Source: an uncultured Planctomycetales bacterium (GTDB taxonomy: Bacteria; Omnitrophota; Gorgyraeia; Gygaellales; Profunditerraquicolaceae). From it: a stretch of DNA of 64,000 nt. The DNA lies in contig CAZYCL010000001.1 in NCBI GenBank assembly GCA_964645795.1, positions 223,194 through 287,193 on the forward strand. Direction: 5' to 3'. The notes beneath the pieces are model-generated. The model was not told the DNA's origin. It searched no databases and worked only from the letters and a program-made list of their open reading frames with translations. The position numbers and the translations under genes were made by a program. Shown here one piece after another: positions 16,296 through 64,000 of the stretch; within the stretch, counting starts at the first letter, position 1; every line of letters starts with the position of its first letter.

Positions 16296-16312
16296 CTATA
16301 TAAATGAGCTAT

Positions 16313-17484: not shown

Positions 17485-17485
17485 T

Positions 17486-18175: not shown

Positions 18176-18178
18176 CTC

Positions 18179-19162: not shown

Positions 19163-19166
19163 GCGA

Positions 19167-20540: not shown

Positions 20541-20552
20541 ATGTTAACACGC

Positions 20553-21164: not shown

Positions 21165-21177
21165 ATTTAACCCTCCG

Positions 21178-25141: not shown

Positions 25142-25180
25142 GACGATGCCTCCGTATAGTTAGCAGGTTATGCTGGCGGG

Positions 25181-26230: not shown

Positions 26231-26236
26231 CTCTTA

Positions 26237-32668: not shown

Positions 32669-32669
32669 A

Positions 32670-33851: not shown

Positions 33852-33853
33852 AA

Positions 33854-37297: not shown

Positions 37298-37942
37298 TCA
37301 AACCCCCTGAAGCCTGAAGCCGGCCTTTTTTGCGGTATCCCAACGCCTGTTAATACTTATCCAGCAAGAGGTTAGGATAAGCCGGATATCCAGCCATAAG
37401 CACTGGTTCTCAATATACCAGATATCATACTCGGTTTTCTTGCTTATGGATATATCCCGGGGTGCGAATACCTGGGCGACACCGGTAAGGCCGGGCCTGA
37501 CCAAAAGCCGCTTATGGCAGCTTTCGCTACAGGGGCCCTGGGGGCTGTTAACATCCTGCTGAATCTCCCTTAACCTTAATGGCCTGGGCCCCACAAAGGA
37601 CATCTGGCCACTGGCTATATTTAAAAGCTGCGGCAGCTCATCCATGGCAGTCCTGCGAAGCCACCTGCCGACCAACGTCACCCTGGGGTCATCCTCGCGC
37701 GCCTGCACAGGGCCGGTATCCTTTTCGGCATCCTTTATCATCGACCGGAATTTCAGGCTTTTGAATATCCTGCCATACCTGCCCACCCTCTCCTGAGAGT
37801 AAAATACCGGCAGCCCGTCCTCCAGCCATATGGCGTAACTGAAAATTGCCCAAAGCGGCAGACTGAAAAACATGCCGGTTACAGCCAGGGTAAAATCAAG
37901 AAACCTCTTCAGGGAATAACCGCTATCTTTCATCTCTTGCAC
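37298..37942 (-). CDS. polyprenyl-phosphate sugar-1-phosphate transferase (bacterial sugar transferase family, small PglC/WecP-like type)
   Basis: 214 aa with an N-terminal re-entrant helix plus the motifs KFRSM, DELPQL and PGLTGVAQV. It is the initiating enzyme of the glycan locus. Confidence 0.75.
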   Translation of the reverse strand: MQEMKDSGYSLKRFLDFTLAVTGMFFSLPLWAIFSYAIWLEDGLPVFYSQERVGRYGRIFKSLKFRSMIKDAEKDTGPVQAREDDPRVTLVGRWLRRTAMDELPQLLNIASGQMSFVGPRPLRLREIQQDVNSPQGPCSESCHKRLLVRPGLTGVAQVFAPRDISISKKTEYDIWYIENQCLWLDIRLILTSCWISINRRWDTAKKAGFRLQGV

Positions 37943-39117
37943 AATAAACCGTTGATCCTGTCTGCGAGCTTGCCGGCAAGCGCCGGCCAGCTGTAACGCT
38001 CTCTTATCAGGTCCATGGCCCTGGCGCTGATCCTTTGACGCAAGGCTGCATCTTCCAGCAGCATAAGCACTTTTTGCGCGAAAACCTGCGGGTCATCCGC
38101 AACCAGGACATTTTCACCGTCCTGCGCGGATATGCCGCCCAGACCTATGCTCGTGGTCACCACCGGCAGCCCCAAAGACATGGACTGTATCACCTTATTT
38201 TGAATACCTACGGCAATACGCATGGGTGCTACGCAGACACATGCGTCCCTGACGTAAGGACGAATATCTTCGACATCGCTATATACCCTGACCCCGTTTT
38301 TGCCGGCAAGCCGCTTTAGCTTTTGCGGCATATTGGCCCCGACTATAACGAGCCTGGCATTGCCTGATTGGCTACGCACCAGCGGATATATCTTATCATA
38401 AAAGAAACTGATCGCGTCGATATTATGGAAAGCGCGCAGATTGGCGAAAAACACGATCTTGCCGGCTTCAACTATCCTGTCTTCGGGGCTTATGTCTTCC
38501 GGATCCGCTCCGTTCTCCACTACCTCAAGCCCCCCTGCCCCCAGCTCACCCTCTAGGTACGCCTTATCCACGGACGAAGATACGATGTTGAGATCGAAGT
38601 TCTTTATGACAGACGGCTCATAGGCACCAAGCCTGCGCGACTCGATACGCTCAACGATCTTAAAAGGGCCTTTTCTGTAACGCGAAGATATCCCGTACCT
38701 TAATGTAAGCGCATCCGAGAGGTCAAGCACTTTTGCAATGCGGGCTCCTTGCGCGTAAGGCGCCAGGCGCAGAAGATGGCAGAAGATAAGATCGTAGCCT
38801 CCCGAAGCCAGCTGGCGCCTTACCGCTTCAAGCATAAAAGGAGAGTGATAATAACTAAGCTCCAATGGCCTTGAGCCAAACAGGCCGACGGCGCACTGCA
38901 GGTAGGATCTGGGCTTGGGCAGCCCTATCATATCCAGTTCTACCTCAGGCAGCCTGTAATCTAAAGCCTGCCGCCTCTCTATTTGCGAATCGTAGAAACT
39001 GAGGACCTTGATACGGAACTGGCCGCAAAGATGCTTGATGAAATTATAAGGACGCAGCCTTTCGCCTCCCCGGGGAGGGAAAGGCGGCCTGGTTGTCAAA
39101 AAAAGCATCTTTTTCAC
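37930..39117 (-). CDS. glycosyltransferase family 4 (GT-B)
   Basis: 395 aa with a C-terminal Glycos_transf_1-like region (E-x7-E). Confidence 0.6.
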   Translation of the reverse strand: MKKMLFLTTRPPFPPRGGERLRPYNFIKHLCGQFRIKVLSFYDSQIERRQALDYRLPEVELDMIGLPKPRSYLQCAVGLFGSRPLELSYYHSPFMLEAVRRQLASGGYDLIFCHLLRLAPYAQGARIAKVLDLSDALTLRYGISSRYRKGPFKIVERIESRRLGAYEPSVIKNFDLNIVSSSVDKAYLEGELGAGGLEVVENGADPEDISPEDRIVEAGKIVFFANLRAFHNIDAISFFYDKIYPLVRSQSGNARLVIVGANMPQKLKRLAGKNGVRVYSDVEDIRPYVRDACVCVAPMRIAVGIQNKVIQSMSLGLPVVTTSIGLGGISAQDGENVLVADDPQVFAQKVLMLLEDAALRQRISARAMDLIRERYSWPALAGKLADRINGLLCKR

Positions 39118-40553
39118 AGGAACTTCCTTCTTAAAGCGGTAAGGCTGCGATAAAGCCTGACCGGAGAAGCTAATAAACCGATATTTTTAAATAAGACCCT
39201 GGGCCTCAGGTAAAACGAAAGATTGGCGTATCTGACTAAGCGGTTAAGGTTTTTGGCGCTGAGCCCCGGATAGCTTATCACGGCCTTTGACTGCACGCTT
39301 TCGGCGACATAATCTTCGCCGATAAAAAGATTGCCGTTCTTGGCGATCTTATAAAGCTCTGTCCCGGGAAAAGGGGTAGCCAAAGAGAACATTACCATAT
39401 CCACGTCCAGCTTTTTGGCCGTGCGGATATCGCGGATTATCCTGCTTCTATCCTGGAGCCTGGATAACCCGAGCACGAGATTTATCTTGACCAATATCCC
39501 GTGCTTCTTGAGGATCTTCACGGCCTCATAGATCTTGGCCACATCAAGTCCTTTGTGCGCGTCATCAAGCACTTCCTGGTCAAAAGACTCTACCCCCATA
39601 TCCAGGTATACGCAGCCTGCCGCTTTAAGCGCTGCGGCTACTTCGTCGGTGATCCGGTCGGCCCTGGCCAGACATCCCCAGCGCATACCCATTTGTTTTA
39701 ACCCTTCGCAGATAGCCAGGGAGCGTTCCTCGGACCAAAGAAACTGGTCATCGATGATGCTTACGGACTTATACCCCTGGGCCCTGAGCTCTTCGAACTC
39801 GAGTATCACGTTCCGGGCCGAACGCAGGCGCACCGCGGGCTTCTGGTCCTGATGATACCTCCTGTGCTCCAGCTCTCTGGCGAAGTTGTAAGAATTCGGC
39901 ACGCAAAAGACGCACTGATAAGAACAGTTGCGCGAGGTCTGCACGGCGGTAAACGGCAGGAGCTCAAGTTTAGGGTTGTAATAAAGATCGCGGTTAAGCA
40001 GCCTGCGGCAGGGAAACGGCAGGGAATCCAGCTCCTCAAGAAGCGGCCTGGGGGGATTATCTGCCTGCGAGCCATCTTGCCTAAGAAAAGAGACCCCTTC
40101 CACTCCCTCTGCCCCTTTGCCGGCGCTTAAAGAGCGGACCAGCTCCAGCAAGGTAACCTCCGTCTCTCCTCTTACCGCGAAAGTATCCCGGTCTTTGAGG
40201 AAAAAATTGGCAAAATACGTGGGAGCGGGCCCGCAGAAGACGACAGCTCGCCTCTTTGAGCTCTCTCTAATGAGCCGATGAAAGACCATATCGGAATCCA
40301 TGGAGAGGTTAATGGAATGCAACACATAAACGAGGCTGTCATCCGAGGCCAGGAATCGCCTGATCTTGGCAGCGTTCCAGGCTTCGGCGGACATATCCAG
40401 GTAGGCAACGCCATGCCCGTTCTTGTCCAGAACTGATGCCGCTGAAAGAGAAAAGATATTCGGGATGGGATAAAGGCTATAGGTGCAGCCGAATACCCTC
40501 TCGAACCCTTTTCTGCCTTTTAAGTTCGGCGGGTCTATGAAAGTTACTTTCAA
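39114..40553 (-). CDS. B12-binding domain radical SAM enzyme (class B)
   Basis: N-terminal cobalamin-binding-like domain plus a CxxxCxxC motif (CSYQCVFC); 479 aa. Confidence 0.65.
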   Translation of the reverse strand: MKVTFIDPPNLKGRKGFERVFGCTYSLYPIPNIFSLSAASVLDKNGHGVAYLDMSAEAWNAAKIRRFLASDDSLVYVLHSINLSMDSDMVFHRLIRESSKRRAVVFCGPAPTYFANFFLKDRDTFAVRGETEVTLLELVRSLSAGKGAEGVEGVSFLRQDGSQADNPPRPLLEELDSLPFPCRRLLNRDLYYNPKLELLPFTAVQTSRNCSYQCVFCVPNSYNFARELEHRRYHQDQKPAVRLRSARNVILEFEELRAQGYKSVSIIDDQFLWSEERSLAICEGLKQMGMRWGCLARADRITDEVAAALKAAGCVYLDMGVESFDQEVLDDAHKGLDVAKIYEAVKILKKHGILVKINLVLGLSRLQDRSRIIRDIRTAKKLDVDMVMFSLATPFPGTELYKIAKNGNLFIGEDYVAESVQSKAVISYPGLSAKNLNRLVRYANLSFYLRPRVLFKNIGLLASPVRLYRSLTALRRKFL

Positions 40554-40554
40554 T

Positions 40555-44051: not shown

Positions 44052-44883
44052 CTTTTCCTTTCATCATCAGCCTGAGTATCCTGTAATCAATAAGCATCCT
44101 GAACCAGAAGCCGTGCCAGAAGTGGAACTCCCAGCCGCGCATGCCGTCCAGGAACCCAAGCCTAATAATAAAGCGGTAAATGAAGTAAGCGAGCACCCGC
44201 AAAAAAATGGGCAGCCTGTAATAGATATTGTAGCGCCTCCAGCCCCTCTTTTGTATCGGCGTGCCTTTAAAGCTGACATTTGCCGTCTTTCGGCTGGAGA
44301 GGGCCTCCCTGGCTTCAAGCTGGGCCCACCTGCTATGCCTTTCTTTCCAGGATCCAAGATCAGGATTTATAATATTGATGATATCCCCTTTTAGTATCCC
44401 TGTCTTGCCGTTCACCGCAAAATTCTGGTCATACAGCCTTTTTTCAACTGCCCCCTTGTCTTTCTTGAATATGCGTAAATGATATACCGGATAGTGATCG
44501 CCGAACCGTATCCACTTGCCCTTAAAGAGCGTCCGTCTGCTGGCCATGAACCCGTCCGCCTCTATTGTTTGCGAAAAAATTCCCCGCAACTCATCCGCAA
44601 GCTCCCTGCTTATCCTCTCATCGGCATCGAGGTGAAGCACCCAGAGGTTTTTAGTCTCCAGGTTATTCTGCGCCCAGTCCCTTTGTTGGGCGTAATCAAC
44701 AAACGGATGCTGGCAGACGTTGGCCCCGAGTGCGCGTGCGATCCCCACCGTATTGTCACTGCTAAAAGAATCCACCACAAATACCTCATCGCATAATCCC
44801 AAGACGCTGGCAATGCAATCGGCTATATTTGATTCTTCGTTCAAGGTAAGTATGATGGCTGAAACCGGTATGCTTGCGCTCAT
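44032..44883 (-). CDS. glycosyltransferase family 2
   Basis: N-terminal VSAIILTLNEE...DSFSSD GT-A signature (DXD); 283 aa. Confidence 0.65.
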   Translation of the reverse strand: MSASIPVSAIILTLNEESNIADCIASVLGLCDEVFVVDSFSSDNTVGIARALGANVCQHPFVDYAQQRDWAQNNLETKNLWVLHLDADERISRELADELRGIFSQTIEADGFMASRRTLFKGKWIRFGDHYPVYHLRIFKKDKGAVEKRLYDQNFAVNGKTGILKGDIINIINPDLGSWKERHSRWAQLEAREALSSRKTANVSFKGTPIQKRGWRRYNIYYRLPIFLRVLAYFIYRFIIRLGFLDGMRGWEFHFWHGFWFRMLIDYRILRLMMKGKDADTGP

Positions 44884-47887: not shown

Positions 47888-47889
47888 GA

Positions 47890-49302
47890 TTACTGGCCTG
47901 CCTGTTCTTGGATACGTCTGGAAGACGCGCTCATGAAGCTCATGACCATGTAAAACAGGATCATGTATTGGATGACATTGCCGAATACGAGCGAAAAATC
48001 GGACTCAACGTTAAGCAGGTTATAGAAAACCGCCGCACCTATAAGGAAAGTCCCGTCTTTACATCCTGGGAAGTTTATCATTGCGTATAGGCCGCGTATG
48101 ATCAACCCGAAGATAAACATCCCAACGACCACCCCCCATGGCCCGAAGTTGACGAACATCTCAAGGGTTATGGGAAGATTGTAGGAAGTAGACATGTCGC
48201 TGGGCAGAAGAAAACAATAGCGGTGGCCGAACTCCGTACCCACGTTCTTGGTGGGTTTGCCTGGAAACAGCGCCCTGGGGAAAAACGACAAGGGGAGCGT
48301 GCGGTAAGTATGCCCGTTCCAGTAAGGAATGGTGCGGGGAGTAAGGTCAACTACCCTAACGAAAGTCACCAGGTGATTGGAGCGGGAGACAAGCTTCTCG
48401 TAGGCTTTGGCGTCAAATTCGCTATCGGAGCCCGGAAGCTTTACCATTAACTCCAGGTATAACACTATCTTTCTGATAGTCGATTCCGCGCTATACCTGC
48501 CCCCGTACCAGGCCAGACTCCTGTACTCATCCCGCACGCCCCATACGCGGAATATAAACAAGGAGACGATTATCAAGGCCACCCACGGGATCTTCTGGCG
48601 GCAGTAGAAATAAATGAAGAACAAGGTGCAGGACTCAAGCAACACAGGCATGACCGATCCGGTAGCGATGGTATAGAGAAGCCTTGAAGGAATAAAGAGC
48701 ACCCACAATAACAGCTTAAAGAAACCGCTGAGTTTTCCCTGCAGGCCCAGGAGAAAGAATATGATAATCGCTAAAAGCGATAGCTGCACGATGAAACCGT
48801 GGATGCTGCCCCCTACCAGGGACAGCGTATAGTTGGAGAAAAAGTAAGTTATGGTGATGGATACGAAATAGAGTATAAGCCCGAGGCTTGAAGATTTTGA
48901 TGGGTCCAGCGAAATATCCAGATGCGGCAGCGCGGAATCAAGGGGCTTGCCGAGCTGCGAATAGAACGCCATCAGGAACGCAACAAAACCTACGAGCACC
49001 ATTAACAGTGTCGTCGTGGAGGTGGCCGGGCCGACAAAATCAAACCAGAACTGGACGTCTTTACTGCTGAATATATTTCCGAAGTGCATGAAATAGATGA
49101 TACCGTAGAGGGGCACATACGGTATGGTCTTTTCCGAACGCGCAAAATAAATCACGGTCGGGATGCAGGTTACCAGATACACCAGTGAGGCCATAAGCAC
49201 CTGAACCGGCAGAAAGCCTTTATTGTGCCAACCGTGAAATACGTAAAACCATATTGCAGCTACCGCCAGTAAAACCTTGAACGCTGTGCCTCTTTTATCC
49301 AT
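47890..49302 (-). CDS. multi-pass membrane protein, O-antigen ligase/polymerase-like (Wzy_C superfamily?)
   Basis: About 10 TM helices with a large loop before the final TMs. The start is set at MDKRGTAF, because the upstream 44 aa of the ATG-ORF overlap the preceding gene. Confidence 0.35.
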   Translation of the reverse strand: MDKRGTAFKVLLAVAAIWFYVFHGWHNKGFLPVQVLMASLVYLVTCIPTVIYFARSEKTIPYVPLYGIIYFMHFGNIFSSKDVQFWFDFVGPATSTTTLLMVLVGFVAFLMAFYSQLGKPLDSALPHLDISLDPSKSSSLGLILYFVSITITYFFSNYTLSLVGGSIHGFIVQLSLLAIIIFFLLGLQGKLSGFFKLLLWVLFIPSRLLYTIATGSVMPVLLESCTLFFIYFYCRQKIPWVALIIVSLFIFRVWGVRDEYRSLAWYGGRYSAESTIRKIVLYLELMVKLPGSDSEFDAKAYEKLVSRSNHLVTFVRVVDLTPRTIPYWNGHTYRTLPLSFFPRALFPGKPTKNVGTEFGHRYCFLLPSDMSTSYNLPITLEMFVNFGPWGVVVGMFIFGLIIRGLYAMINFPGCKDGTFLIGAAVFYNLLNVESDFSLVFGNVIQYMILFYMVMSFMSASSRRIQEQAGQ

Positions 49303-49322
49303 TTTTGGCGCTTCTTTCCGCT

Positions 49323-50528
49323 TCAGTCTGCATTCGATATAGCACGATAGTGACTGAGCATGTATTCTACGTAATGGTCCCAGGTAAAACTGCTGATCAC
49401 CCTCTCCCTTGCCCTCTCTCCCATAGCCTGGCATGCAGAGCGGTTCTCGTATAAGTATATGAGCTTTTCTTTCAAAACCTGCTCATCCCTGATCGGTATC
49501 ACAAAACCCTCCATTCCATCGCGTATTATATCAGAACCTCCGGTATTTGTCGTGCAGACAAGCGGCAAACCGCAGCACATCGCCTGCAGCTGCACAACGG
49601 CCATCCCTTCATCTATGGAGGGCATGACAAAAACCGAACCCTGAGAGTAATAGCGGTGGAGCAAGCCTTGAGGTTGATGCGGTATCCAGCGAAAGCTGTC
49701 GCGATACTCTGCCAATATGCGCCTGGTGTCCGGGTTTAGGCTGCCGATAAGCCAAAGCTCTGAGTTGGGCAGCCGCGCCTGGCTGAATGCCTTCAACAAA
49801 TAAGGTATGCCCTTCCTAAGGCTGATATTGCCGGCGCAGATCACCCTGAAAACGTCATCATTCTTGGGCAGCCGGGGGAACTCTTCGGGATCGACCCCGC
49901 GAAAGCTTTTAATAACCTTGGAGGGGTCTACCCCCGATTCCTTGAATGTATCCAGGGCATAAGAGCTGGGTACTTCTATATAATCGGCCAATTCGTATTC
50001 CCGTATCTCTTTTTCCACCAGCCGAGGGTGCGCCGCCTGAAACTCCGCCTTCCATCTGCCGGCCTCCTCTTGCCTTATCCTCTGCTGCCACACCATGTGG
50101 GAGCTGCCGCGCTCAAGAATGCTCTTTATCCCCAGCTGCCTGGCCTTTTTTAAAGTATGCAGGGCGCAGCCGGACCAAGAGATGCAAAGGTCGCTTTTTT
50201 TGAGTTTTGCTGCGGCTATCCGGTCGAAGATCTCCCCAAGCACGAAATCCGTAGCCAGGATCCGGTTTAACGAATACGGCGCCATATTGCACAAACGAAC
50301 CAGGCACTCAATTAAAACCTCTGAATCTACGCATTTATGCGCAATGGCATAACCTTTCATGGCGAACTTCGGATAGGTAGTGATGATGCGCACGAAGACG
50401 CCTTTCCTGATAAGCCTATCTGCCAGGTAAAAAACGTGGAACCTTCCGGCAACCGTTATGGTAATCTGCATAATTGGAATAAGTTCCCGTAGTTCCTGCA
50501 GTATTTTATGAATACATAAACCTTCCAA
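49323..50528 (-). CDS. glycosyltransferase family 4
   Basis: 401 aa with the GT-B fold and a C-terminal GT1-type motif (EGMAVVQLQAMCCGLPLV). The N-terminus may start at an internal Met. Confidence 0.6.
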   Translation of the reverse strand: MEGLCIHKILQELRELIPIMQITITVAGRFHVFYLADRLIRKGVFVRIITTYPKFAMKGYAIAHKCVDSEVLIECLVRLCNMAPYSLNRILATDFVLGEIFDRIAAAKLKKSDLCISWSGCALHTLKKARQLGIKSILERGSSHMVWQQRIRQEEAGRWKAEFQAAHPRLVEKEIREYELADYIEVPSSYALDTFKESGVDPSKVIKSFRGVDPEEFPRLPKNDDVFRVICAGNISLRKGIPYLLKAFSQARLPNSELWLIGSLNPDTRRILAEYRDSFRWIPHQPQGLLHRYYSQGSVFVMPSIDEGMAVVQLQAMCCGLPLVCTTNTGGSDIIRDGMEGFVIPIRDEQVLKEKLIYLYENRSACQAMGERARERVISSFTWDHYVEYMLSHYRAISNAD

Positions 50529-52114: not shown

Positions 52115-52121
52115 TATTTAA

Positions 52122-54433: not shown

Positions 54434-54454
54434 ATTGCGATAAAATAATTCCGG

Positions 54455-54524
54455 GTCGATGGTCTATAGTCGATGGTCTATAATCTATAGCGGGACCGCA
54501 GGCCATTAACTATCGACTATAGAC
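54455..54524. repeat. perfect 14-mer tandem direct repeat (GTCGATGGTCTATA x2) plus a 13-bp inverted partner (ATCGACTATAGAC) 37 bp away; candidate operator or structured element
   Basis: Read directly in the 123-bp gap between the glycosyltransferase at 54557-55738 and the radical SAM gene. Direct copies lie at 54455-54468 and 54469-54482, and the inverted copy at 54512-54524. Confidence 0.5.
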
Positions 54525-54556
54525 TGTTGATTATCGGCCCTGAAATGCCTTCTTGA

Positions 54557-55738: not shown

Positions 55739-57099
55739 CGGACCTGTCTTTCGCTCAGTATCTTCTCATAAATTGACTGGGTATCCGCTGCCACCTGCTG
55801 CATGGTCCTGGGGCAGGAGATGCTGGCGCCTAACCCCTCCAGCATGCCGTGTTCGCGCAAGGCCCGGCGGAGTATCCCGGCCAGCGCCCTGTGATCGCCG
55901 GCCTCAAAAAGCAGGCCTCCTCGGCCGCTGTTGACCAGCTCTGCTATGCCGCCGCGGTTGGAGGCGATTACCGGAACACGGCAGGCCCAAGCCTCCAGCA
56001 ATACCAGGGGGCCGGTCTCCAGCCACAAGGAAGGAATGACCAATAGATCGGCTTCCTGCATCACCTCAAACCTCCTGCCCGGATCAAGCAGCCCTCTCCA
56101 GATGATCCGCCTATCCTGCCCGTATCTTTTTTTAAGCTTCAGGAGGTATTTTCTCTCGCAGTCAAACGCAGGCTCCCCGAATATATGCACTTGAATATCG
56201 ATATCGGGCTCTAGCAACGCAACTGCCTTAAGCAGGATATGCAGCCCCTTATAAGGAGTTATCCTTCCCACAAAGAAGCATTTAAGCTGCGTGTGGGGCT
56301 CTCTTGGCTTTAGAGCTGGGGTCTTTTCGACCCCCTGGCGGCAAAGGAATATATTCTCTTTTTTATAACCGTTCTCAAGCAAAAGCTGGCGCGTCCATTC
56401 CGAAACCGCAACAAAATAATTTACCATCCCCAGGCCCCGGCGCATCCTCTCCATGCGCCTGAAGGTTAACCACGGCAGGCCAAGCCATGTCGCAAAAGGC
56501 AGCTTAATCCCGGACAGTCCGCAGCGCTTGTATAAAAACCAGGAAACAAAAAGCGGGGCGCGCGACCAGCACCAGGCCAGCGCTTGAGGCAATAGATACT
56601 CCATCTGCACGCAGAACAGGCACCGTCTGTAATCCATAATACCCTTGCACGGCGATCTGCCGCAATAAAGCATATGCCCCTGACCGCAGGTCATCATCGG
56701 GGTATGATACGACAGGATTATCGGTATAGCCTTATCTTTGATCAGGCGCATGGCCGTGATCACATGGGTCGATGAAAAATGATGGAAGTGGGCTACCTGG
56801 GGCCTGGTTTCTTGGAGCAGCCGGGAAAATACGGCGCCTGCCTTATCTTCATCGTCGAAGTATATGTCTTGGGTCTTCTGCCCCCAAATGTTCTCCTCGA
56901 GGGCAAAAACGCTCACCCCCTCATAAGCATAGCGCTTTATCCTGAAAGGCTCCCCGCCTTTTTCTCTAAAGACATCGAAGTAGCAGACAAAAACCTCATG
57001 GCCTTTGGCCAAAAGCTCCTTATTCAGGGCATAAAGATAAGTCTCCGTCCCGCCCACCTTTCCGGGCAGATAACTGCAGCTAACTTGGAGTATCTTCAT
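55735..57099 (-). CDS. glycosyltransferase family 4
   Basis: 454 aa; the N-terminus is GT4-like and a C-terminal Glycos_transf_1 motif is present. Confidence 0.6.
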   Translation of the reverse strand: MKILQVSCSYLPGKVGGTETYLYALNKELLAKGHEVFVCYFDVFREKGGEPFRIKRYAYEGVSVFALEENIWGQKTQDIYFDDEDKAGAVFSRLLQETRPQVAHFHHFSSTHVITAMRLIKDKAIPIILSYHTPMMTCGQGHMLYCGRSPCKGIMDYRRCLFCVQMEYLLPQALAWCWSRAPLFVSWFLYKRCGLSGIKLPFATWLGLPWLTFRRMERMRRGLGMVNYFVAVSEWTRQLLLENGYKKENIFLCRQGVEKTPALKPREPHTQLKCFFVGRITPYKGLHILLKAVALLEPDIDIQVHIFGEPAFDCERKYLLKLKKRYGQDRRIIWRGLLDPGRRFEVMQEADLLVIPSLWLETGPLVLLEAWACRVPVIASNRGGIAELVNSGRGGLLFEAGDHRALAGILRRALREHGMLEGLGASISCPRTMQQVAADTQSIYEKILSERQVR

Positions 57100-58031
57100 T
57101 GCTTCCCTTGGTAATCAAGCTTTCTTCCCTTCAATATGAGCCTCAACGCCATAATAGAGCCCACAAAAAACTCCCTCAGTGCGGCCAAAAAGTAACGCGG
57201 CCTTAAGATGTTCTTTTTGCGGAACACGCATCCGCGCAGCCTCAAAAGCACTTCCCAGAAAGAGAGGATGCCGTAGTTTATCAGGAAAAAGTACATCCAT
57301 ATCTTCCAGGTATTGCGTTCGGCGATAACAAACTCATCCATCCCCGAAGGCCCGCTGACTGAAGGCTCTACCAAATGCCGCAGGGACGCCTGGGGGTCAT
57401 GAAAGGCCTTTAGCTTCTTCTTTGCGCAAAGCTTGTGCAGGCGCAGAGAAAAATCGGTATCGTCGAAGTAGGTTATCGTAAAGTTCTCATCAAACCCTCC
57501 GACTGCCAAATACAGCTCTTTTCTGACCGAAAGATTGCATGAGGAAAGATTTATGACTTGGTGCCTGTGGGCGTAATTAAGGGGGAAGTACATCCACCCG
57601 GTAAAGGGATAGTAATACCTTAACGGGATCCTGGAAACCGCAACCTCATCCGCCTCCAGAACCAGACCTGAAACAGCGCCAATGCCGGGATCGCTATAGT
57701 TGGAATAGTGCGCGTATACAAAGTGCTTCTCGACCACTACGTCATCATCGATTATCAGCACGATACTTGAAGACGCTTCTCTTACGCCGCGGTTGCGGGC
57801 GGCGCTGGCGTTCGGATTATCCTGAAATATATGCTTTATCTTGCCTTCCCTGGCCAAAAGAGAGAGAAAATCGGCCGTTTCTTTCTCATGCTCTTTTGTC
57901 TGGTCTACAACGATAATCTCAAGCGGCGCAGGGTCTTGGGCGAGGATCGCGCTAATCGTCTGGCATAACAGCCTGCCCCTCTTATAGGTAGGAATGATAA
58001 TCGAAAGGTCTAACTTGTTTTTGCTATCCAC
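57096..58031 (-). CDS. glycosyltransferase family 2
   Basis: The N-terminal LSIIIPTYKRGRLL...DDD region gives the GT-A signature; 311 aa. Confidence 0.65.
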   Translation of the reverse strand: MDSKNKLDLSIIIPTYKRGRLLCQTISAILAQDPAPLEIIVVDQTKEHEKETADFLSLLAREGKIKHIFQDNPNASAARNRGVREASSSIVLIIDDDVVVEKHFVYAHYSNYSDPGIGAVSGLVLEADEVAVSRIPLRYYYPFTGWMYFPLNYAHRHQVINLSSCNLSVRKELYLAVGGFDENFTITYFDDTDFSLRLHKLCAKKKLKAFHDPQASLRHLVEPSVSGPSGMDEFVIAERNTWKIWMYFFLINYGILSFWEVLLRLRGCVFRKKNILRPRYFLAALREFFVGSIMALRLILKGRKLDYQGKQ

Positions 58032-58040
58032 AATAAAGGG

Positions 58041-59288
58041 CTAATAACGGTACTCCCATTGAGCTGCCAAAGATACCTGCCCTAAGCGCTCCACGGGCCT
58101 GGGATCAGCAAGCTCGAAAACGCACCAGCGATCAAGCCAATCATAGACTACCGCCTTGTTCACGTCCTGGATATAAACGCTTAAGTAATACTTGCCGCTG
58201 GGCAGCCCCAGCGACGCAGTCTTATAGACAAAACCCGCCCTGCCTTCGATAATAAGCGGACGGTCCATGTCCAGACCGTTAGTTTCCCCGTAAACGAGGT
58301 CCCCTTTCTCGTTGTGAATGGCCATCCCGAATACGGCAGCCTCGATCCTCCTTTTTGCTTCAAACTCGACCTTAAAGGCCCAGTTGCCCGCCGACTCGAA
58401 TACTTTTGGTTCGGCTGCCGCGGGCCTATCGACGAACTCAACGTTTTTTATCTCGATATCCTGGTTGCCCCATCTGTTTTTGGGGTGCTTTTCGCTGGAA
58501 GAGGTAAAGCTGCCTTGACCCGCCTTCGATTGATAGGTAAGGATAACATCGTGGGCGGCTCCGTCAGCAGCAACCTTTCCTTTTTCAAGCAGCACGACCC
58601 GCTTGCAGAAATTGGATACCGAAGCCAGGTTATGAGAAACCATGATCACCGTGCGGCCGCTTTTAATGAACTTCGTCATCGCATCCAGTGATTTACGGTA
58701 GAACTTCTCATCGCCAACGGCCAGTATCTCATCAATTAGAAGGATGTCGGGGTTAAGGTGTATGGTGACGGAGAAGGCCAGGCGCAGCTCCATGCCGCTA
58801 GAGTAGTACTTTACCGGCTCGTTTACAAACTTGCCCAGCTCCGAGAAATCAACGATGCTGTCGAAGTTTTCCTTTAGCTCCCTGCGGCTCATCCCTATTA
58901 TGGAGCCGTAGAGAAAAATATTGTCCCGGCCGGTCAGGTCTCCGTGCAGGCCCGCCCCCAGCTCAATCAGCGATCCGAGCCTTCCGCAGGTAGTTATCCT
59001 GCCCTTGGTAGGATAAATTATCCCGGACATGAGCTTCAATATCGTGGTCTTGCCTGCGCCGTTGGAACCGATGATACCTAGCGCCTCGCCTTTCTCTACG
59101 CATAAATTTATGTCTCGCAGCGCCCAAAAAGAAGTCCTGTCTTCTTCTTCGGGGGTATTTATTTTGCGCTTGCGCCAGGGATTCAACCTGTTTACCAGGA
59201 GGGCGAACTCATCCCTAACGGTAAAGGCATGATACCCCCAAAACCTGTATTTCTTGCCTACTCCCTCAAGACAGACCGCTTCGTTCAA
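58041..59288 (-). CDS. wzt: polysaccharide ABC exporter ATP-binding protein (Wzt/TagH type) with a C-terminal carbohydrate-binding extension
   Basis: Walker A GSNGAGKTT and signature YSSGM; a ~170-aa beta-rich C-terminal domain follows the NBD, as in Wzt_C. Confidence 0.65.
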   Translation of the reverse strand: MNEAVCLEGVGKKYRFWGYHAFTVRDEFALLVNRLNPWRKRKINTPEEEDRTSFWALRDINLCVEKGEALGIIGSNGAGKTTILKLMSGIIYPTKGRITTCGRLGSLIELGAGLHGDLTGRDNIFLYGSIIGMSRRELKENFDSIVDFSELGKFVNEPVKYYSSGMELRLAFSVTIHLNPDILLIDEILAVGDEKFYRKSLDAMTKFIKSGRTVIMVSHNLASVSNFCKRVVLLEKGKVAADGAAHDVILTYQSKAGQGSFTSSSEKHPKNRWGNQDIEIKNVEFVDRPAAAEPKVFESAGNWAFKVEFEAKRRIEAAVFGMAIHNEKGDLVYGETNGLDMDRPLIIEGRAGFVYKTASLGLPSGKYYLSVYIQDVNKAVVYDWLDRWCVFELADPRPVERLGQVSLAAQWEYRY

Positions 59289-59304
59289 GGCCTCCCCTTT
59301 TTCA

Positions 59305-60141
59305 TCAGATCACATCCATGAATTTTCTTTCGGCACGTTTAAAGAAATAATAAGCGGCGGTAAAAAGTATGAGCGATACCACGGCAGACAGCAGTATATA
59401 GCGCAGCTCGGGACGCACGCCCTTGATGATCACCCGGCGGTAGCCATCGATGATGCTGGCCATGGGGTTAAGCATATAAAGCATCCGGTATTTCTCCGGG
59501 ATAAAGGTAACCGGATAGAATATCGGAGTGGCGAACATCCATAACTGCAGGGCCAGCGGCACCGCATATCTGACATCGCGATAACGGGCATTCACCGCGG
59601 CAGAAAACAGCGATATCCCGATTGTAAAGATAAGCTGCAGGAAAAACAAAGGGAACACCCAGAGAATATTCGCCGTCACGCCTACCTGGTAATAAAACAT
59701 CATCAGGACAAATAATACCGCCGTGATCCCGAAATCGACCAACGGGGCGAAGACGCTGGAAAGCGGCGATATTTCGCGCGGGAAGTACACCTTCATGATC
59801 AAATGCCTTTCGCGCACCATGCTCGGGACCGAAAAAATCAGGGCGGTGGAAAAAAACGTCCAGGGCAGGAGCGCGCTGTAGGCGAATATCGGATAGGGGA
59901 TGCCTTCTGTGGGTATGCGGGCGAACTTTCCGAATATAATGCTGAATATAAGCGTCAGTGATGCGGGCTGGGCTATGGCCCAGAACACCCCGAGGACCGT
60001 CTGCTTGTAGCGGATCTTTATCTCGCGCCAGGAAAGGGTCAGAAGCAGCTCGCGGTAGCTCCAGAGCTCCCTTACGCAGTCCAGCAGGGAAAGGTTGAAA
60101 TCAGGAGTGATCACGCGAACAAAATCGCCGTTTTTCTTCAT
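59305..60141 (-). CDS. wzm: ABC-2 type polysaccharide exporter permease
   Basis: 278 aa with 6 TM helices (ABC-2 family), directly upstream of wzt. Confidence 0.65.
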   Translation of the reverse strand: MKKNGDFVRVITPDFNLSLLDCVRELWSYRELLLTLSWREIKIRYKQTVLGVFWAIAQPASLTLIFSIIFGKFARIPTEGIPYPIFAYSALLPWTFFSTALIFSVPSMVRERHLIMKVYFPREISPLSSVFAPLVDFGITAVLFVLMMFYYQVGVTANILWVFPLFFLQLIFTIGISLFSAAVNARYRDVRYAVPLALQLWMFATPIFYPVTFIPEKYRMLYMLNPMASIIDGYRRVIIKGVRPELRYILLSAVVSLILFTAAYYFFKRAERKFMDVI

Positions 60142-60164
60142 ATTGGCCTTAATAAATTTAAAAT

Positions 60165-60173
60165 ATTATATCA
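60165..60173 (-). promoter_or_regulatory. extended -10 promoter element (TGA-TATAAT) upstream of wzm
   Basis: The minus strand reads TTTTTGTGATATAAT. A 23-nt leader carrying an AAGG Shine-Dalgarno follows, ending 5 nt before the wzm ATG. The element overlaps the stop of the upstream methyltransferase gene. Confidence 0.35.
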
Positions 60174-60881
60174 CAAAAATCTTTCGAATATCTTATTTAT
60201 TAACGCCTTCAGCCGCCTGCCGCCGAGGGGGGCGGGGATATTCATGCCCGACCGATAAAAGGCGAGTTTAACCAGCATATAAACGCGGTACAGGCACCTG
60301 ACATACCCGATGCGCAAAGGAGTTGCCTGCACAGCTTCTCTGTCCTTGACGGCGATGCAGAGCTCTTTTGAGAACGTTATCCCGCTAAACCTGCCGGAAT
60401 CGATGATGTATTTCTTTATTGCCCTCTGGATATCGGGGTTCGATACGCCACCGAAACCGATTGCCCCTCCCGGCAATAGATGCCTCTCCCAGAGAATAAA
60501 ATCAGCCTTGGTAGTCAGATAATTACCATCCCCGTCTATCCAGATGAACTTGAGCGGCGCCTGCCACCCGATATTAGCCCGCGCCGAATCCATGAATATG
60601 ACCTTTACCCTGTCCTTAGCGCCTGAGGCGTCGATATTGCACAACAGCTCATCCCTGGTATTGAGCAGGTTAGCTTCAACGGAGTAGACCATACCCTCCT
60701 TCTGTCCGTCGACGAGCCCTTTGGCCAAGGCCACCGCAGTCCTGCCTTTGAAAGCCCCTATCTCCAGGACATCTCCCGGGCATTGAAGACCCGAGACAAG
60801 CGTGTAGAGCATGAAGCAGTCCTGCGGGAAACAGAAACCCGGTATCTTCTCTATGAAATCGATGAACTCGTTTTCGCTCAA
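60171..60881 (-). CDS. class I SAM-dependent methyltransferase (O-methyltransferase-like)
   Basis: 236 aa with the Rossmann motif VLEIGAFKGRTAV. It lies immediately upstream of wzm-wzt. Confidence 0.5.
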   Translation of the reverse strand: MSENEFIDFIEKIPGFCFPQDCFMLYTLVSGLQCPGDVLEIGAFKGRTAVALAKGLVDGQKEGMVYSVEANLLNTRDELLCNIDASGAKDRVKVIFMDSARANIGWQAPLKFIWIDGDGNYLTTKADFILWERHLLPGGAIGFGGVSNPDIQRAIKKYIIDSGRFSGITFSKELCIAVKDREAVQATPLRIGYVRCLYRVYMLVKLAFYRSGMNIPAPLGGRRLKALINKIFERFL

Positions 60882-61630
60882 CTCGCTTTTCTCTCCTGCG
60901 GCCTCATACGCCGGTAAAAATAAGCTCCGAATCCCGATAACTTCGCAATAAACCTCAAAGACGGTTCACGCTCGGCAACAGTCATCCTTTTTATATCGTA
61001 GGGGCCGGCCGGATCAAAACCAGACCTAAAACCCTGATTGGTAGAAAATGCCGCCTTATAACCGCAGCTCTTTACCGTATCTTCTATTTTTTCATTAAAA
61101 CCGCCCCATGGATAGGCGATGAAATCAACCCCTGCGCCCAGCGCTTCCTCAAGGATGCGTTTTGACTCTTTTATCTCCAACTCTGCATCAAACGGCGCCA
61201 AATCAGGCAGGTATCGATGCCTCAGGGTGTGACTGCCGATGGTAACCAGGCCGCTGGAGACGAGCTCTTTGAGCGCTTCCCGGCTTAAACAGCCGCTCTT
61301 GCCGATATTTCCGGCTATGATAAACAGGGTAACGGGATAACCGAAGCTTTTTATGATAGGCCAGGCACGCTCCTTAAAATCATCCGTTCCGTCGTCAAAG
61401 GTCAAAAAGACCCGCCTGCGCAAGCTGCCTCCTCCGATTAGGTCCTGCAAAGGGGCGACTTCCAGGCCCAGCCTCTTGATCATTGCCATCTGCCTGCCAA
61501 ATAGCGATGCGCCGACCCCGGCCCCCTTGATGCCATCCGGGGCTATTTTATGGTAGACCAATACCGCAGGATGGTGCCTGCCGCCTAAAACAGAGTTCAG
61601 AAGATAAAAAAATGCTGCGGCTATGCTCAT
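60878..61630 (-). CDS. polysaccharide deacetylase family protein (NodB homology domain)
   Basis: FLTFDDGTDD motif and the downstream His motifs typical of carbohydrate esterase family 4 (CE4). Confidence 0.65.
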   Translation of the reverse strand: MSIAAAFFYLLNSVLGGRHHPAVLVYHKIAPDGIKGAGVGASLFGRQMAMIKRLGLEVAPLQDLIGGGSLRRRVFLTFDDGTDDFKERAWPIIKSFGYPVTLFIIAGNIGKSGCLSREALKELVSSGLVTIGSHTLRHRYLPDLAPFDAELEIKESKRILEEALGAGVDFIAYPWGGFNEKIEDTVKSCGYKAAFSTNQGFRSGFDPAGPYDIKRMTVAEREPSLRFIAKLSGFGAYFYRRMRPQERKAS

Positions 61631-63837
61631 ATCTGTTTAATGGAGGAAAAGGCATCCAACAGGCCTTTTACGAATTCGTCATAATTCCACGGCCGGATGA
61701 TCTCAAGGCTGCGCTCTCCCATCCGCCTTCTTAACTGAGGATCCGCCAATAGCCCGCACAGGCATCGGGCCAGGGCCTCTGTATCGCCGGCGCCAAGCAC
61801 ATAACCATTCTCTGCCTCGCGCACCAGATCATAGGAAGCCATTACCGCGTCGGTGGTTATTACGGGCAGCCCGAAGCACATCGCCTCATTTACCACCAAC
61901 CCCCAGCTCTCGGCGCGGGAAAAAAGCACGAAGATATCGGCGAGCGCATAAAAATTCGAGACCTGGCTTATATTCTGGAACCCGAAAAAGAACACATTGG
62001 CCAAGCGCCTGGCGCGGACATAGCTTTCCAGGTCCTTTAGCAGCGGCCCGCTGCCTACATAGACCAACGCCGCCGCGGTAGAGATATTCTCAAAAACGCG
62101 AAGCAGCTCATACGCCCCCTTGTTTTTGTTTATCTTGGATAAGTACAGGATGACCGGTAAGCCTTCTGGAATACCGAACCTTGACCTCAACTCCTGTTTT
62201 CTGGGTGAAAGTTCCTCTGATTTGGCGAAAAAATAATCGTTATTGGCGGCGTAGGGCGTAAAGAAAAGCTTTGAGTTCTCGACGCCGTAATCAAGAAAGA
62301 ACTTTTTTGCCTGCGTGCCTATGTAACCGAAGGCTTCTACCTTCTTGAACAGGTAGCGCAACAGCGGCTTCTTAAATATCTTCTTAAATCCGGGCACATT
62401 GATTTCCGGGAACCTCGGCTCACCCAGGAGCACTTTGGGCGTACGGCTCAAGAATACGCCTAAGAATACCAGCCAGTAAAAAGGCATGCCGTAACCGGGG
62501 ATCACCACGGCATCATATTTATTTTTGCTGATATCGCTCATAATCCTCATCCCGCCGCAAAACGTCTTCATGAAATTATTCCCCTTCTTCCCGGGGCTTA
62601 ATATCTCGTAATTTACCTGAGATATATCAAGCGTGTCCCATTTGAAGAAATGGCAAAACTGGCGGTCATAGACCTCCCGGATACCGGGGTCAGAGAGAAA
62701 ATAGATCTTGAAATCAAGCTTGGGGTTGGAGCTGAGCTTCTTATAAATCGGCACCCTGCAGGGGATAGGGTGGGTGATCGTAAAGGCGATCCGGAACTTC
62801 TTCTCCTTGGGCAGTTGCGATAAGCGCCCATAAGCATCCAGTATGCTCCTGACCCTCTCCAGATACGTGTAGTTGTCGCAAAGGCACCTGTTGTAGCCTG
62901 CCTGCGCGATATTCTTGCGCTCTTCTTCATGCTCCAGATAATAGTTTACCTTGCTCCTTAGCTCACCGGGGGTGGAAAAGTATACCGCCTCCTTATCTTC
63001 GGCAAAAAATGCCTTGGCCTCATCGCTCCTTTCGGAAAGCATGAAGCCGCCGCAGGCCGGCGTCTCGAAAGTCCTCATGTTGTGGCTGGTCTTGTTCTGA
63101 AGGCGCAAGATATTCAGCGATATCTTGCTGGCCGCTGTGACCTTTGAGAAGAACTCCCCATGCTCGGCATTGCCCCTGTAGCAGCGGCGCAGCAGCTTGT
63201 CGCTGCAACGGGTGAGCCAATAATCATTGCCCCAGATGCCAAGATTAAAATCGACCAGCTCCCGAAGCCAATGTTCGCGCTCGCTGTCCCAGTTGCCGAT
63301 AAAAACCAGGTCGCTGCCCAGCTGCGAACGCTCTTCATCGCTGACGCTGGTAGGATAATCGAGCTGCGGGTCGTAAGCGAAGGGCAGGTATTCTACGCGC
63401 GCAAGGCCCCTGGCCTTGAGTTCGTCGATAAGAAACCTGCCCCAGATAAAATAAACATCGTAAAGCCTTAAAGACTGGGTTATCCATACATTATTAGAGC
63501 CGAAATGCCAGGTGTTAAAAGGATTGTCGGGGTTAAAGCAAAAAATTGCAGTCTTGGTAAACCTTCTCTTAAGGTAAGCGATCATCTGCGGGCTGTAAAA
63601 CCAGCCCTTCAGGATAAGGACAAGATCGGGCCTGACACTTTCTACGGTATTGATGAAATCTTTCTGGATGGTGCGGGCGATCTGCCTCCAGAAAATCCTG
63701 AAGACATAGCGGTTGCGCAAGGCTGCCGGCATACGATTATGCAAGGCCTCGTCATTAAAAAGGTGCACTTGCCCGACAAGTTTCTCAAAAGCCCGGTCGA
63801 AGGAATGGCGGTAGCTTCCGCTAATGACGACTTTCAT
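61627..63837 (-). CDS. two-domain glycosyltransferase (N-terminal CgeB-like/GT-B domain plus C-terminal GT4 domain)
   Basis: 736 aa. The C-terminal half carries a Glycos_transf_1 motif (ESWGLVVNEAMCFGLPVITTD). The N-terminal half looks like a second GT-B module. Confidence 0.5.
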   Translation of the reverse strand: MKVVISGSYRHSFDRAFEKLVGQVHLFNDEALHNRMPAALRNRYVFRIFWRQIARTIQKDFINTVESVRPDLVLILKGWFYSPQMIAYLKRRFTKTAIFCFNPDNPFNTWHFGSNNVWITQSLRLYDVYFIWGRFLIDELKARGLARVEYLPFAYDPQLDYPTSVSDEERSQLGSDLVFIGNWDSEREHWLRELVDFNLGIWGNDYWLTRCSDKLLRRCYRGNAEHGEFFSKVTAASKISLNILRLQNKTSHNMRTFETPACGGFMLSERSDEAKAFFAEDKEAVYFSTPGELRSKVNYYLEHEEERKNIAQAGYNRCLCDNYTYLERVRSILDAYGRLSQLPKEKKFRIAFTITHPIPCRVPIYKKLSSNPKLDFKIYFLSDPGIREVYDRQFCHFFKWDTLDISQVNYEILSPGKKGNNFMKTFCGGMRIMSDISKNKYDAVVIPGYGMPFYWLVFLGVFLSRTPKVLLGEPRFPEINVPGFKKIFKKPLLRYLFKKVEAFGYIGTQAKKFFLDYGVENSKLFFTPYAANNDYFFAKSEELSPRKQELRSRFGIPEGLPVILYLSKINKNKGAYELLRVFENISTAAALVYVGSGPLLKDLESYVRARRLANVFFFGFQNISQVSNFYALADIFVLFSRAESWGLVVNEAMCFGLPVITTDAVMASYDLVREAENGYVLGAGDTEALARCLCGLLADPQLRRRMGERSLEIIRPWNYDEFVKGLLDAFSSIKQI

Positions 63838-64000
63838 CAGATCATCCTGTAAAGATCGGTGGCCAGGTTCAGGAATATGTCGCCGGCCAGCTTGCGAAAC
63901 CTTGAGTCCTTCAGGAGGGCATAGATAACCTTGGAATGGTTTTCGAAATCGCCCATCTCTTCCAGGAGCAGCTTGTTCTTTTTAAACAACAAAAATACCC
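63837..64000 (-). CDS. 3' end of an upstream gene of unknown function, truncated by the window edge; its stop overlaps the next start (ATGA)
   Basis: The minus-strand frame reads ...EEMGDFENHSKVIYALLKDSRFRKLAGDIFLNLATDLYRMI* and ends 1 nt into the start codon of the 736-aa gene. Confidence 0.3.
   Translation of the reverse strand, partial: VFLLFKKNKLLLEEMGDFENHSKVIYALLKDSRFRKLAGDIFLNLATDLYRMI

Follow-up and report, generated by a model that had tools for sequence, protein, structure and literature searches.

The 64,000-nucleotide stretch of contig CAZYCL010000001.1 analysed here (assembly GCA_964645795.1, positions 223,194 to 287,193 of the forward strand, from an uncultured bacterium; called the window throughout) carries a run of minus-strand glycan genes that occupies positions 37298 to 64000 and continues past the window edge. 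We consider it probable that these genes form one operon-like block making a complex, tailored surface heteropolysaccharide (a capsule, an exopolysaccharide (EPS) or an O-antigen-like polymer) in an uncultured diderm anaerobe. Loci for polysaccharide biosynthesis and export are a familiar kind of system, of which this one represents a conserved but so far uncharacterised variant. Unusual about it are the tailoring by radical S-adenosylmethionine (SAM) enzymes and the mixture of export routes, a Wzm/Wzt ATP-binding cassette (ABC) exporter standing together with Wzy/Wzc/Wza hardware.

Results

Extent of the locus

Between positions 37298 and 63837 the window holds 21 complete, contiguous open reading frames (ORFs), all on the minus strand and uninterrupted by any gene on the other strand, and a 22nd ORF is present with its 3' end only (63837-64000) before it runs off the edge at 64000 (Table 1). 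An earlier interpretation made from the letters and their ORFs (the sequence-only reading) had counted about 25 consecutive minus-strand genes with mostly overlapping stop and start codons; the uninterrupted one-strand run and the overlaps are borne out, but the count was too high. Start codons were picked to fit the gene calls on a near-identical contig, L001, and the lengths of orthologs. With these likely starts 12 of the 21 junctions overlap by 1-20 nt, mostly in an ATGA pattern, eight are gaps of at most 29 nt and a single one is a gap of 123 nt (54434-54556). L001 is one of the Logan metagenome contigs that carry the two-domain glycosyltransferase (GT) of the locus, and it differs from the window by one mismatch in 12.2 kb. 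It supplies the flanking sequence that had been proposed as a check and agrees with the prediction that the locus runs on past the edge: about 9 kb more, with all genes on the same strand and short or overlapping junctions, leads into Wza-like, Wzc-like and Wzy_C genes and brings the full locus to about 35.6 kb and 30 genes, the boundary being marked by an energy-coupling factor (ECF) transporter.

Table 1. Genes of the glycan locus in order of transcription, and the convergent gene at its end (positions in the window; TM, transmembrane; L088 to L090, related loci described in the text)
Product	Length	Position	Strand	Supporting evidence
Geranylgeranyl-reductase-family FAD protein	367 aa	63837..64000 (3' end), continues on L001 8898-10001	-	TIGR02032 165.5 bits (cut-off 158.8)
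Two-domain GT	736 aa	61627..63837	-	N-terminal CgeB-like Glyco_trans_1_2/DUF3880 (PF13524 2e-35), C-terminal GT4 (PF00534 1e-33)
CE4 polysaccharide deacetylase	250 aa	60878..61630	-	PF01522 1e-24; TFDDG and HTLRH motifs intact
Methyltransf_24 SAM methyltransferase	236 aa	60171..60881	-	PF13578 1e-12; beside Wzm
Wzm, ABC-2 permease	278 aa	59305..60141	-	PF01061 ABC2_membrane 2.3e-18, 67 bits (cut-off 26.9)
Wzt, ABC ATPase with C-terminal carbohydrate-binding domain	415 aa	58041..59288	-	ABC_tran 66 bits; Wzt_C 73.2 bits (cut-off 30.4); Walker A
GT2	311 aa	57096..58031	-	HpsN/EpsD-like, under those cut-offs
GT4	454 aa	55735..57099	-	Orthologs in L088 (49%) and L089 (44%)
GT4-type	393 aa	54557..55738	-	L088 ortholog 52%
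rSAM2, class B radical SAM	489 aa	52964..54433	-	B12-binding 81.9 bits (cut-off 32.1); Radical_SAM 69.8 bits; CPYRCSFC
Methyltransf_23/11 SAM methyltransferase	281 aa	52122..52967	-	Pfam scan; N-terminal Cys-rich motif
AsnB2, divergent AsnB-like amidotransferase	552 aa	50456..52114	-	TIGR01536 237.6 bits (below 267.1); Cys2, SGGIDS
GT4	~382 aa from likely ATG	49323..50471	-	Orthologs in L088, L089 and L090
Wzy-type polymerase candidate	470 aa	47890..49302	-	~10 predicted TM helices; O-ag_pol_Wzy family, not Wzy_C
AsnB1, glutamine-dependent amidotransferase	613 aa	46046..47887	-	TIGR01536 444 bits (cut-off 267.1); Cys2, SGGIDS
GT4	389 aa	44880..46049	-	HpsP-like 335 bits (cut-off 550); conserved-core member
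GT2	283 aa	44032..44883	-	Pfam scan; conserved-core member
NodU/CmcH/TobZ-family O-carbamoyltransferase	581 aa	42306..44051	-	PF02543 194 bits, PF16861 235 bits; HHRAH motif
GT-C fold membrane GT, PMT_2/ArnT-like	584 aa	40555..42309	-	Family profiles and AlphaFold model
rSAM1, radical SAM	479 aa	39114..40553	-	B12-like N-terminal domain 29.8 bits (cut-off 32.1); CSYQCVFC
GT4	395 aa	37930..39117	-	TIGR03087-like 245 bits (cut-off 316.65)
Small polyprenyl-phosphate glycosyl-1-phosphate transferase (initiating enzyme)	211-214 aa	37298..37942	-	One predicted TM helix; PF02397 Bac_transf 4e-58; DE dyad
HAMP-GGDEF protein		35669..37036	+	Convergent with locus end; active-site motif GGDDF, not GG(D/E)EF

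Export and polymerisation genes

Families were assigned with Pfam and NCBIfam scans, PDB sequence matches, structure prediction and motif checks. The predicted exporter, with a C-terminal binding domain on its ATPase, is found: Wzt carries Wzt_C and matches the Wzt of Aquifex aeolicus (8dku/7k2t) over its full length (E 2e-67; residues 53-414 correspond to Aquifex 34-393), and Wzm is 81% identical to its ortholog in a collinear locus, L088. The binding domain implies that a defined chain end is recognised. The Methyltransf_24 gene, which in L088 is also kept beside Wzm (52% identity), encodes a candidate chain-end modifier for this domain. The genes from the two-domain GT to the GT2 at the far side of Wzt form a contiguous ABC module (57096-63837).

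The membrane protein encoded at 47890-49302 had been called Wzy_C-like. It is a candidate Wzy-type polymerase, but of another family: it has no Wzy_C match, eight of the 14 members of its small and divergent family match PF14296 (O-ag_pol_Wzy), and a fold of the Wzy/SEDS/WaaL type is indicated for it. A true Wzy_C protein is encoded on L001, where the genes upstream of the 22nd ORF also specify a TPR protein, a Wzc-like tyrosine kinase of the PCP-2a type (TIGR01007 185.7 bits, cut-off 108; C-terminal YYYYHYYY), a Wza-like exporter of the OPX type with Poly_export and SLBB domains, a putative outer-membrane barrel protein (a faint BBP2_2 match only), an NTP_transf_5 protein and, at the far end of the locus, a PilZ protein in which RxxxR is present and DIGAGG stands in place of DxSxxG. 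Given this Wzc, Wza, Wzy_C and PilZ part past the edge, the locus is mixed and not plainly ABC-dependent. No Polysacc_synt or MOP-family match, as expected of a Wzx flippase, was found among the roughly 30 locus proteins and the flanking proteins scanned (74 kb), although a Wzx gene may lie elsewhere in the genome.

The 22nd ORF encodes a geranylgeranyl-reductase-family protein, and a gene of this kind is unusual in a glycan operon. Its stop codon overlaps the start of the two-domain GT gene by 1 nt, and the two are translationally coupled. The protein might saturate the polyprenyl carrier. The gene is not kept in L088, where a third radical SAM gene is found instead.

Tailoring enzymes

The tailoring set proposed by the sequence-only reading stood up in the Pfam check that it had suggested. 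Its two AsnB-like proteins both have the N-terminal Cys2 nucleophile, a GATase domain and the PP-loop motif SGGxDS, two SAM methyltransferases (Methyltransf_23/11 and Methyltransf_24) are present, and the CE4 deacetylase has intact motifs. The carbamoyltransferase has both domains (Kae1-like at the N-terminus, YrdC-like at the C-terminus) and matches 7xb6, GdmN, NovN and TobZ over its full length (E 1e-78 to 1e-94); the NodU equivalog is not reached (157 bits against 1000). One call needs narrowing. Both proteins taken for class B radical SAM enzymes are radical SAM proteins, each with the CxxxCxxC cluster motif, but B12-binding exceeds the Pfam cut-off in rSAM2 only.

Neither rSAM1 nor rSAM2 reaches an NCBIfam equivalog cut-off for any characterised methylase. 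The orthologs of rSAM2 form a discrete group (47-59% identity, then a drop to at most 35%), whose named members come from Omnitrophota and Scalinduaceae metagenome-assembled genomes (MAGs); when a genome collection was scanned with the rSAM2 ortholog alignment, which holds the generic radical SAM motif, all 80 loci among the matches listed were at most 35% identical. In two other organisms rSAM2 is fused to the neighbouring methyltransferase (P0002 and P0025, 776 and 679 aa; L088 10001-12331), and this Rosetta-stone link suggests that rSAM2 and the Methyltransf_23 protein act on the same substrate. C-methylation is plausible for rSAM2 only, which together with the adjacent methyltransferase appears the best candidate for methylation.

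For rSAM1, whose orthologs are 59-64% identical, the best NCBIfam match is HpnJ (175.6 bits) and the best solved structure AprD4 (6fd2, E 8e-23). These nearest characterised relatives, the hopanoid cyclitol-ether enzyme HpnJ and the apramycin C3' diol dehydratase AprD4, both act on glucosamine-type sugars; the scores of rSAM1 are far under their equivalog cut-offs (577 and 500), and its gene belongs to a glycan operon instead of a hopanoid or aminoglycoside cluster. With such relatives and a B12 domain that scores under the threshold, rSAM1 would be as likely to deoxygenate or rearrange an amino sugar as to act as a methylase. Judged by the families of these enzymes, the product would be carbamoylated, amidated, methylated and de-N-acetylated.

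Initiation and sugar transfer

A single initiating transferase, identified as expected by its Bac_transf domain, is present in the ~35.6-kb locus, together with nine GT genes (five single-domain GT4, two GT2, one two-domain and one GT-C). The Pfam and NCBIfam scans agree with the earlier GT4, GT2 and two-domain calls; the two-domain protein is 58% identical to its L088 ortholog. The GT-C call is a weak one by the sequence of the protein itself, which matches PMT_2 at E 1e-3 only (19.5 bits against a cut-off of 26.1). A word-index homolog search found only the query. An exhaustive HMMER search gave 109 cluster representatives, and of 36 aligned relatives 24 match PMT_2 and 10 match PMT. The AlphaFold model (predicted local distance difference test score 90.5) was matched by Foldseek to ALG9, ArnT, STT3, ALG12, PglB, Pmt4 and AftA with probability 1.00, and only GT-C enzymes reached E <= 0.001. 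The earlier assignment to the GT-C glycosyltransferases is thereby confirmed. PDB sequence searches with the two orphan membrane proteins gave no match even at E 10.

Conservation of the locus

The collinear locus L088, on contig SRR12594517_7015, shares 20 genes with the window, from the two-domain GT through to the TIGR03087-like GT4, at 42-81% identity and with one extra methyltransferase. L089/L105 has the order GT4, GT4, rSAM2, GT4, Wzy-like, AsnB, GT4, GT2, carbamoyltransferase, rSAM1, GT4; L105 reaches further, to the initiating transferase, and no ABC exporter lies within 10 kb. The reduced core of a Scalinduaceae locus (L090) comes with a Polysacc_synt (Wzx) gene instead of Wzm/Wzt.

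To these we added 34 metagenome loci for which the Wzy-like protein served as anchor, each 10 kb long or more and many of them on soil or rhizosphere contigs. Among the partners of the Wzy-like gene, conservation is highest for the carbamoyltransferase (21 of the 34 loci, at 48-60% identity; 48-69% across related loci), and an AsnB1-like gene occurs in 18. Orthologs of rSAM2 and rSAM1 were found in only two and three of them, GT-C in two and Wzm/Wzt in one or two. The recurrent core therefore consists of the Wzy-like protein, GT4, GT2, carbamoyltransferase and often AsnB, and the radical SAM genes, GT-C and the ABC exporter, being rare among the anchored loci, are accessories on this widespread core. 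The window and its collinear relative are the fullest version of the locus seen. This distribution suggests a widespread family of carbamoylated exopolysaccharides, and we infer that the subclade of core carriers which gained two radical SAM enzymes is anaerobic.

Comparison with known systems

All similar loci found lie on unannotated metagenome contigs, in MAGs or on an unstudied Bradyrhizobium plasmid, and none is characterised. No equivalog cut-off was reached in NCBIfam for any named EPS, O-antigen, Hps, PEP-CTERM or NodU family; among the 21 window locus proteins only AsnB1 passes an NCBIfam cut-off (the generic asparagine-synthase TIGR01536), and two L001 proteins pass generic subfamily cut-offs (the Wzc-like kinase, TIGR01007; the reductase, TIGR02032).

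With ABC-dependent O-antigen export (E. coli O9a type; Aquifex WzmWzt) the locus has in common Wzm, Wzt with Wzt_C and the adjacent multi-domain GT and SAM methyltransferase that is predicted to be able to cap the chain. It differs in four additional proteins that have no place in the classical scheme, namely a candidate Wzy-type polymerase, a protein with Wzy_C, a tyrosine kinase of the PCP-2a type and a Wza-like channel. That scheme, in which the polymer is finished in the cytoplasm and no Wzy takes part, fails because a Wzy-family protein belongs to the operon and to the conserved core. With the Wzx/Wzy pathway (E. coli group 1 capsule, colanic acid) the locus shares an initiating transferase, many GTs and a Wzy-family protein, and further a Wzc-like kinase that ends in a tyrosine cluster and a Wza-like protein with Poly_export and SLBB domains. 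It differs in having Wzm/Wzt in the place of Wzx within the 74 kb covered, and none of its proteins reaches the NCBIfam equivalog cut-off for Wzc, EpsE, EpsF or EpsG; the classical Wzy-dependent scheme fails for want of a Wzx in the locus.

Several of the best NCBIfam similarities of locus genes fall in families associated with XrtA/PEP-CTERM EPS loci, namely the GT TIGR03087 (245 bits, cut-off 316.65), the amidotransferase TIGR03108 (413, cut-off 817), the sugar transferase TIGR03013/03025 (TIGR03013 173, cut-off 393), the exporter TIGR03027 (152, cut-off 180) and the kinase TIGR03018 (126, cut-off 231). Membership was rejected since all of these scores are under cut-off and neither the locus nor its flanks yielded an exosortase gene. 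Scores for HpsP (335, under 550) and HpsN (141, under 425) likewise exclude a hormogonium polysaccharide (Hps) locus.

The closest relative found in a cultured organism is on the plasmid NZ_CP094524 of Bradyrhizobium sp. ISRA443 (L091). It shares the order GT4, GT4, ..., GT4, 455-aa membrane protein, GT4, GT2, carbamoyltransferase (49% identical) and also has Wza, Wzc and an O-antigen-ligase-family gene. It differs in having GDP-fucose synthesis genes and no radical SAM, AsnB, GT-C or Wzm/Wzt, and its other proteins are 26-32% identical.

The sequence-only reading had recognised the combination of genes as no characterised locus. Literature searches for this enzyme combination in polysaccharide loci indeed gave no matching characterised cluster, but the tailoring trio has a precedent in moenomycin. 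Work by Ostash and colleagues from 2007 and 2009 is said to have identified MoeM5 as the carbamoyltransferase, MoeK5 as the radical SAM methylase and MoeF5 as the amidotransferase. Tailoring of moenomycin unit F thus draws on the same three families as the locus (AsnB-like, NodU/CmcH-type carbamoyltransferase and B12-type radical SAM). MoeH5 is a further AsnB-like amidotransferase of that cluster (PMC8778134, PMC13096315), and moenuronamide is 3-O-carbamoyl-4-C-methyl-glucuronamide (PMC13584161). The systems differ in that moenomycin is an actinomycete pentasaccharide phosphoglycolipid built on phosphoglycerate-farnesyl, whereas the locus is primed on polyprenyl phosphate and has a polymerase and export genes. 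On the Streptomyces clavuligerus megaplasmid the tailoring trio lies within ~10 kb, with ABC ATPase genes within ~19 kb, at 26-32% identity to the locus proteins; the megaplasmid is reported to carry a moenomycin-like cluster (PMC2997539), and the trio region may be part of it. Membership in a moenomycin-type cluster was rejected, as the trio agrees at family level only, there is no prenyltransferase or MoeO5-like match and the initiator is of the Bac_transf family. The parallel is a likeness in chemistry.

Genomic setting

Outside the locus the window holds mainly housekeeping genes (alr, tsaBE, thiL, mtnA, tatD, ricT, holB, tmk, cysS, cysE, ispDF, radA, mlaDFE, clpC-mcsB-mcsA, an aminotransferase, Lol-type ABC genes and lysS), so the locus is chromosomal; the Mla and Lol systems in the flanks indicate that the host has an outer membrane. 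The GC content of the locus is uniform with the remainder, and no tRNA genes or Rfam matches were found in the window; together with the housekeeping flanks this led us to reject an origin as a genomic island or mobile element.

Scans gave 27 terminator-like sites against 24.9 expected, which is no enrichment, and 32 promoter-like sites against a shuffled expectation of 16.1, about twofold, of which none is decisive; operon boundaries therefore rest on gene spacing. Within the window, the locus has no sizeable gap other than that of 123 nt, which is found close to where the ABC-exporter genes give way to the Wzy and tailoring genes; hexamers resembling promoters occur at this gap and immediately upstream.

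The HAMP-GGDEF protein encoded next to the locus end is a possible candidate for a regulator of the locus. Beyond it lie three minus-strand genes (32264-35554), which may belong with the glycan locus or be independent of it. They encode a protein with DUF1573, a protein of 393 aa that matches no family and a 566-aa TPR protein that resembles PrsT (102 bits, below cut-off).

Farther from the locus, the minus-strand order at 14865-26755 is mcsA-mcsB-clpC, mlaE-mlaF-mlaD, radA, a PIN-domain ATPase, ispD, ispF, cysE, cysS, a Bacillus-like stress and housekeeping order broken by an outer-membrane lipid-asymmetry system, which could be useful for taxonomic placement. Between mtnA and tatD the minus strand encodes a 374-aa protein (10536-11660) with an Npun_F2552-family region and a C-terminal 4Fe-4S ferredoxin domain.

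Discussion

From the gene identities established above we infer the following order of steps and chemistry. The small Bac_transf enzyme would prime polyprenyl phosphate, on which the eight cytoplasmic GT4 and GT2 enzymes, the two-domain one included, would assemble a lipid-linked glycan. Tailoring would take place on the cytoplasmic side, on nucleotide sugars or lipid-linked intermediates, because of the cofactors needed: ATP and glutamine for the AsnB proteins, ATP and carbamoyl phosphate for the carbamoyltransferase, and SAM for the SAM enzymes. The two AsnB-like enzymes would amidate carboxyl groups, probably of uronic acids, and the TobZ-like enzyme would O-carbamoylate a hydroxyl. Methylation, possibly at carbon, would fall to rSAM2 with its adjacent (elsewhere fused) SAM methyltransferase, radical chemistry of the HpnJ/AprD4 type on an amino sugar to rSAM1, and removal of an N-acetyl group to the CE4 enzyme. 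Wzm/Wzt would then carry the lipid-linked product over the inner membrane, the C-terminal domain of Wzt reading a terminal modification that perhaps stems from the Methyltransf_24 enzyme. In the periplasm the GT-C enzyme may attach a residue for which a polyprenyl-phosphate sugar is the donor, polymerisation or ligation of the glycan would fall to the Wzy-type protein, the Wzy_C protein or both, and the Wzc-like kinase and Wza-like channel, which imply a polymer of high molecular weight, would export it. The PilZ gene and, less clearly, the HAMP-GGDEF gene hint at control by cyclic di-GMP.

Several observations weigh against this reconstruction. The product is a prediction from the genes, and none has been observed. 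The locus contains no nucleotide-sugar synthesis genes, for example no uronic-acid dehydrogenase, so the substrates of the AsnB proteins and the carbamoyltransferase are guessed. The second motif of the PilZ protein and the GGDEF motif are both non-canonical, and rSAM1 has a B12 domain under threshold and closest relatives that are not methylases. A Wzy-type polymerase and Wzc/Wza are present though the locus has no Wzx, and related loci carry the core without Wzm/Wzt, one with Wzx instead, which may mean two separate glycans.

This last point leads to the alternative that we take most seriously, although it seems somewhat unlikely: that two glycan pathways lie side by side, an ABC-dependent O-antigen-like module (two-domain GT, CE4, Methyltransf_24, Wzm, Wzt with its binding domain, GT2) and a separate Wzy-dependent heteropolysaccharide module (GT4s, rSAM2, methyltransferase, AsnBs, Wzy-like protein, GT2, carbamoyltransferase, GT-C, rSAM1, initiating transferase) served by the upstream Wzc and Wza. 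The contiguity of the ABC module fits this, as does the position of the only sizeable gap, with its promoter-like hexamers, near the module boundary. L089/L105, L090, the Bradyrhizobium plasmid and most metagenome loci hold the core without Wzm/Wzt in the available DNA, and L090 has its own Wzx gene, but the flanks of most comparison loci reach 10 kb only. Against two pathways stands that the ~35.6 kb hold only one initiating transferase and that the second module would be left without a Wzx. The whole arrangement, ABC module included, is moreover collinear in a second organism at 42-81% identity, and the pair of GT4 genes that directly follows the ABC module is part of the conserved core in L089, so that the modules interlock.

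If a single pathway is retained, a bolder version of it can be formulated, which we regard as quite unlikely: Wzm/Wzt, gated by the carbohydrate-binding domain, replaces Wzx in feeding Wzy/Wzc/Wza, and radical SAM chemistry on lipid-linked intermediates yields a moenuronamide-like residue, that is, a C-methylated, O-carbamoylated uronamide. To our knowledge a sugar of the moenuronamide type is so far known from an antibiotic only.

Very unlikely, in our judgement, is a protein glycosylation system for S-layer, pilin or lipoproteins, in which Wzm/Wzt flips an oligosaccharide and the Wzy_C protein or the PMT_2-like GT-C enzyme transfers it to protein. O-oligosaccharyltransferases of the PglL/PilO type carry a Wzy_C domain, and such a protein is encoded upstream; the GT-C family matches the protein O-mannosyltransferase families PMT and PMT_2, its fold matches STT3/PglB and Pmt4, and related cores occur in Scalinduaceae and Omnitrophota MAGs. 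ArnT, ALG9 and AftA, which are directed at lipids or glycans, match the fold just as well, however, and the GT-C gene is an accessory found in only three related loci, whereas the Wzy-type polymerase belongs to the conserved core and a PCP-2a bacterial tyrosine (BY) kinase with a Wza-like OPX protein is a hallmark of high-molecular-weight polysaccharide export. That the product is no polymer but a small glycolipid, secreted or kept in the membrane and of the phosphoglycolipid type known from moenomycin, is scarcely credible: the co-occurrence of genes for AsnB, a carbamoyltransferase, a class B radical SAM enzyme and ABC ATPases on the S. clavuligerus megaplasmid, the structure of moenuronamide and the prenyl-reductase-family gene of the locus speak for it, but identity to the Streptomyces proteins is only 26-32%, no prenyl-phosphoglycerate synthase is among the Pfam or NCBIfam matches of the locus, and a pentasaccharide phosphoglycolipid would not be expected to need a Bac_transf enzyme, as many as nine GT genes, a polymerase of the Wzy type or Wzc and Wza.

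Polysaccharide loci are very diverse and one more is unsurprising in itself, and the practical value of this one is limited by its uncultured host. The single tailored-polysaccharide locus that we favour nevertheless defines a conserved, unstudied cassette, the core of which spans soil and rhizosphere metagenomes to a Bradyrhizobium plasmid. We know of almost no characterised examples of radical chemistry on polysaccharides, for which the radical SAM pair, one member of it repeatedly fused to a SAM methyltransferase, provides candidates. The carbamoyltransferases are likewise candidates for glycan carbamoylation, a modification that a 2026 review describes as rare in natural carbohydrates (PMC13584161). 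In combining an ABC exporter with Wzy, Wzc and Wza while lacking Wzx, the locus departs from the textbook view of two distinct routes of export.

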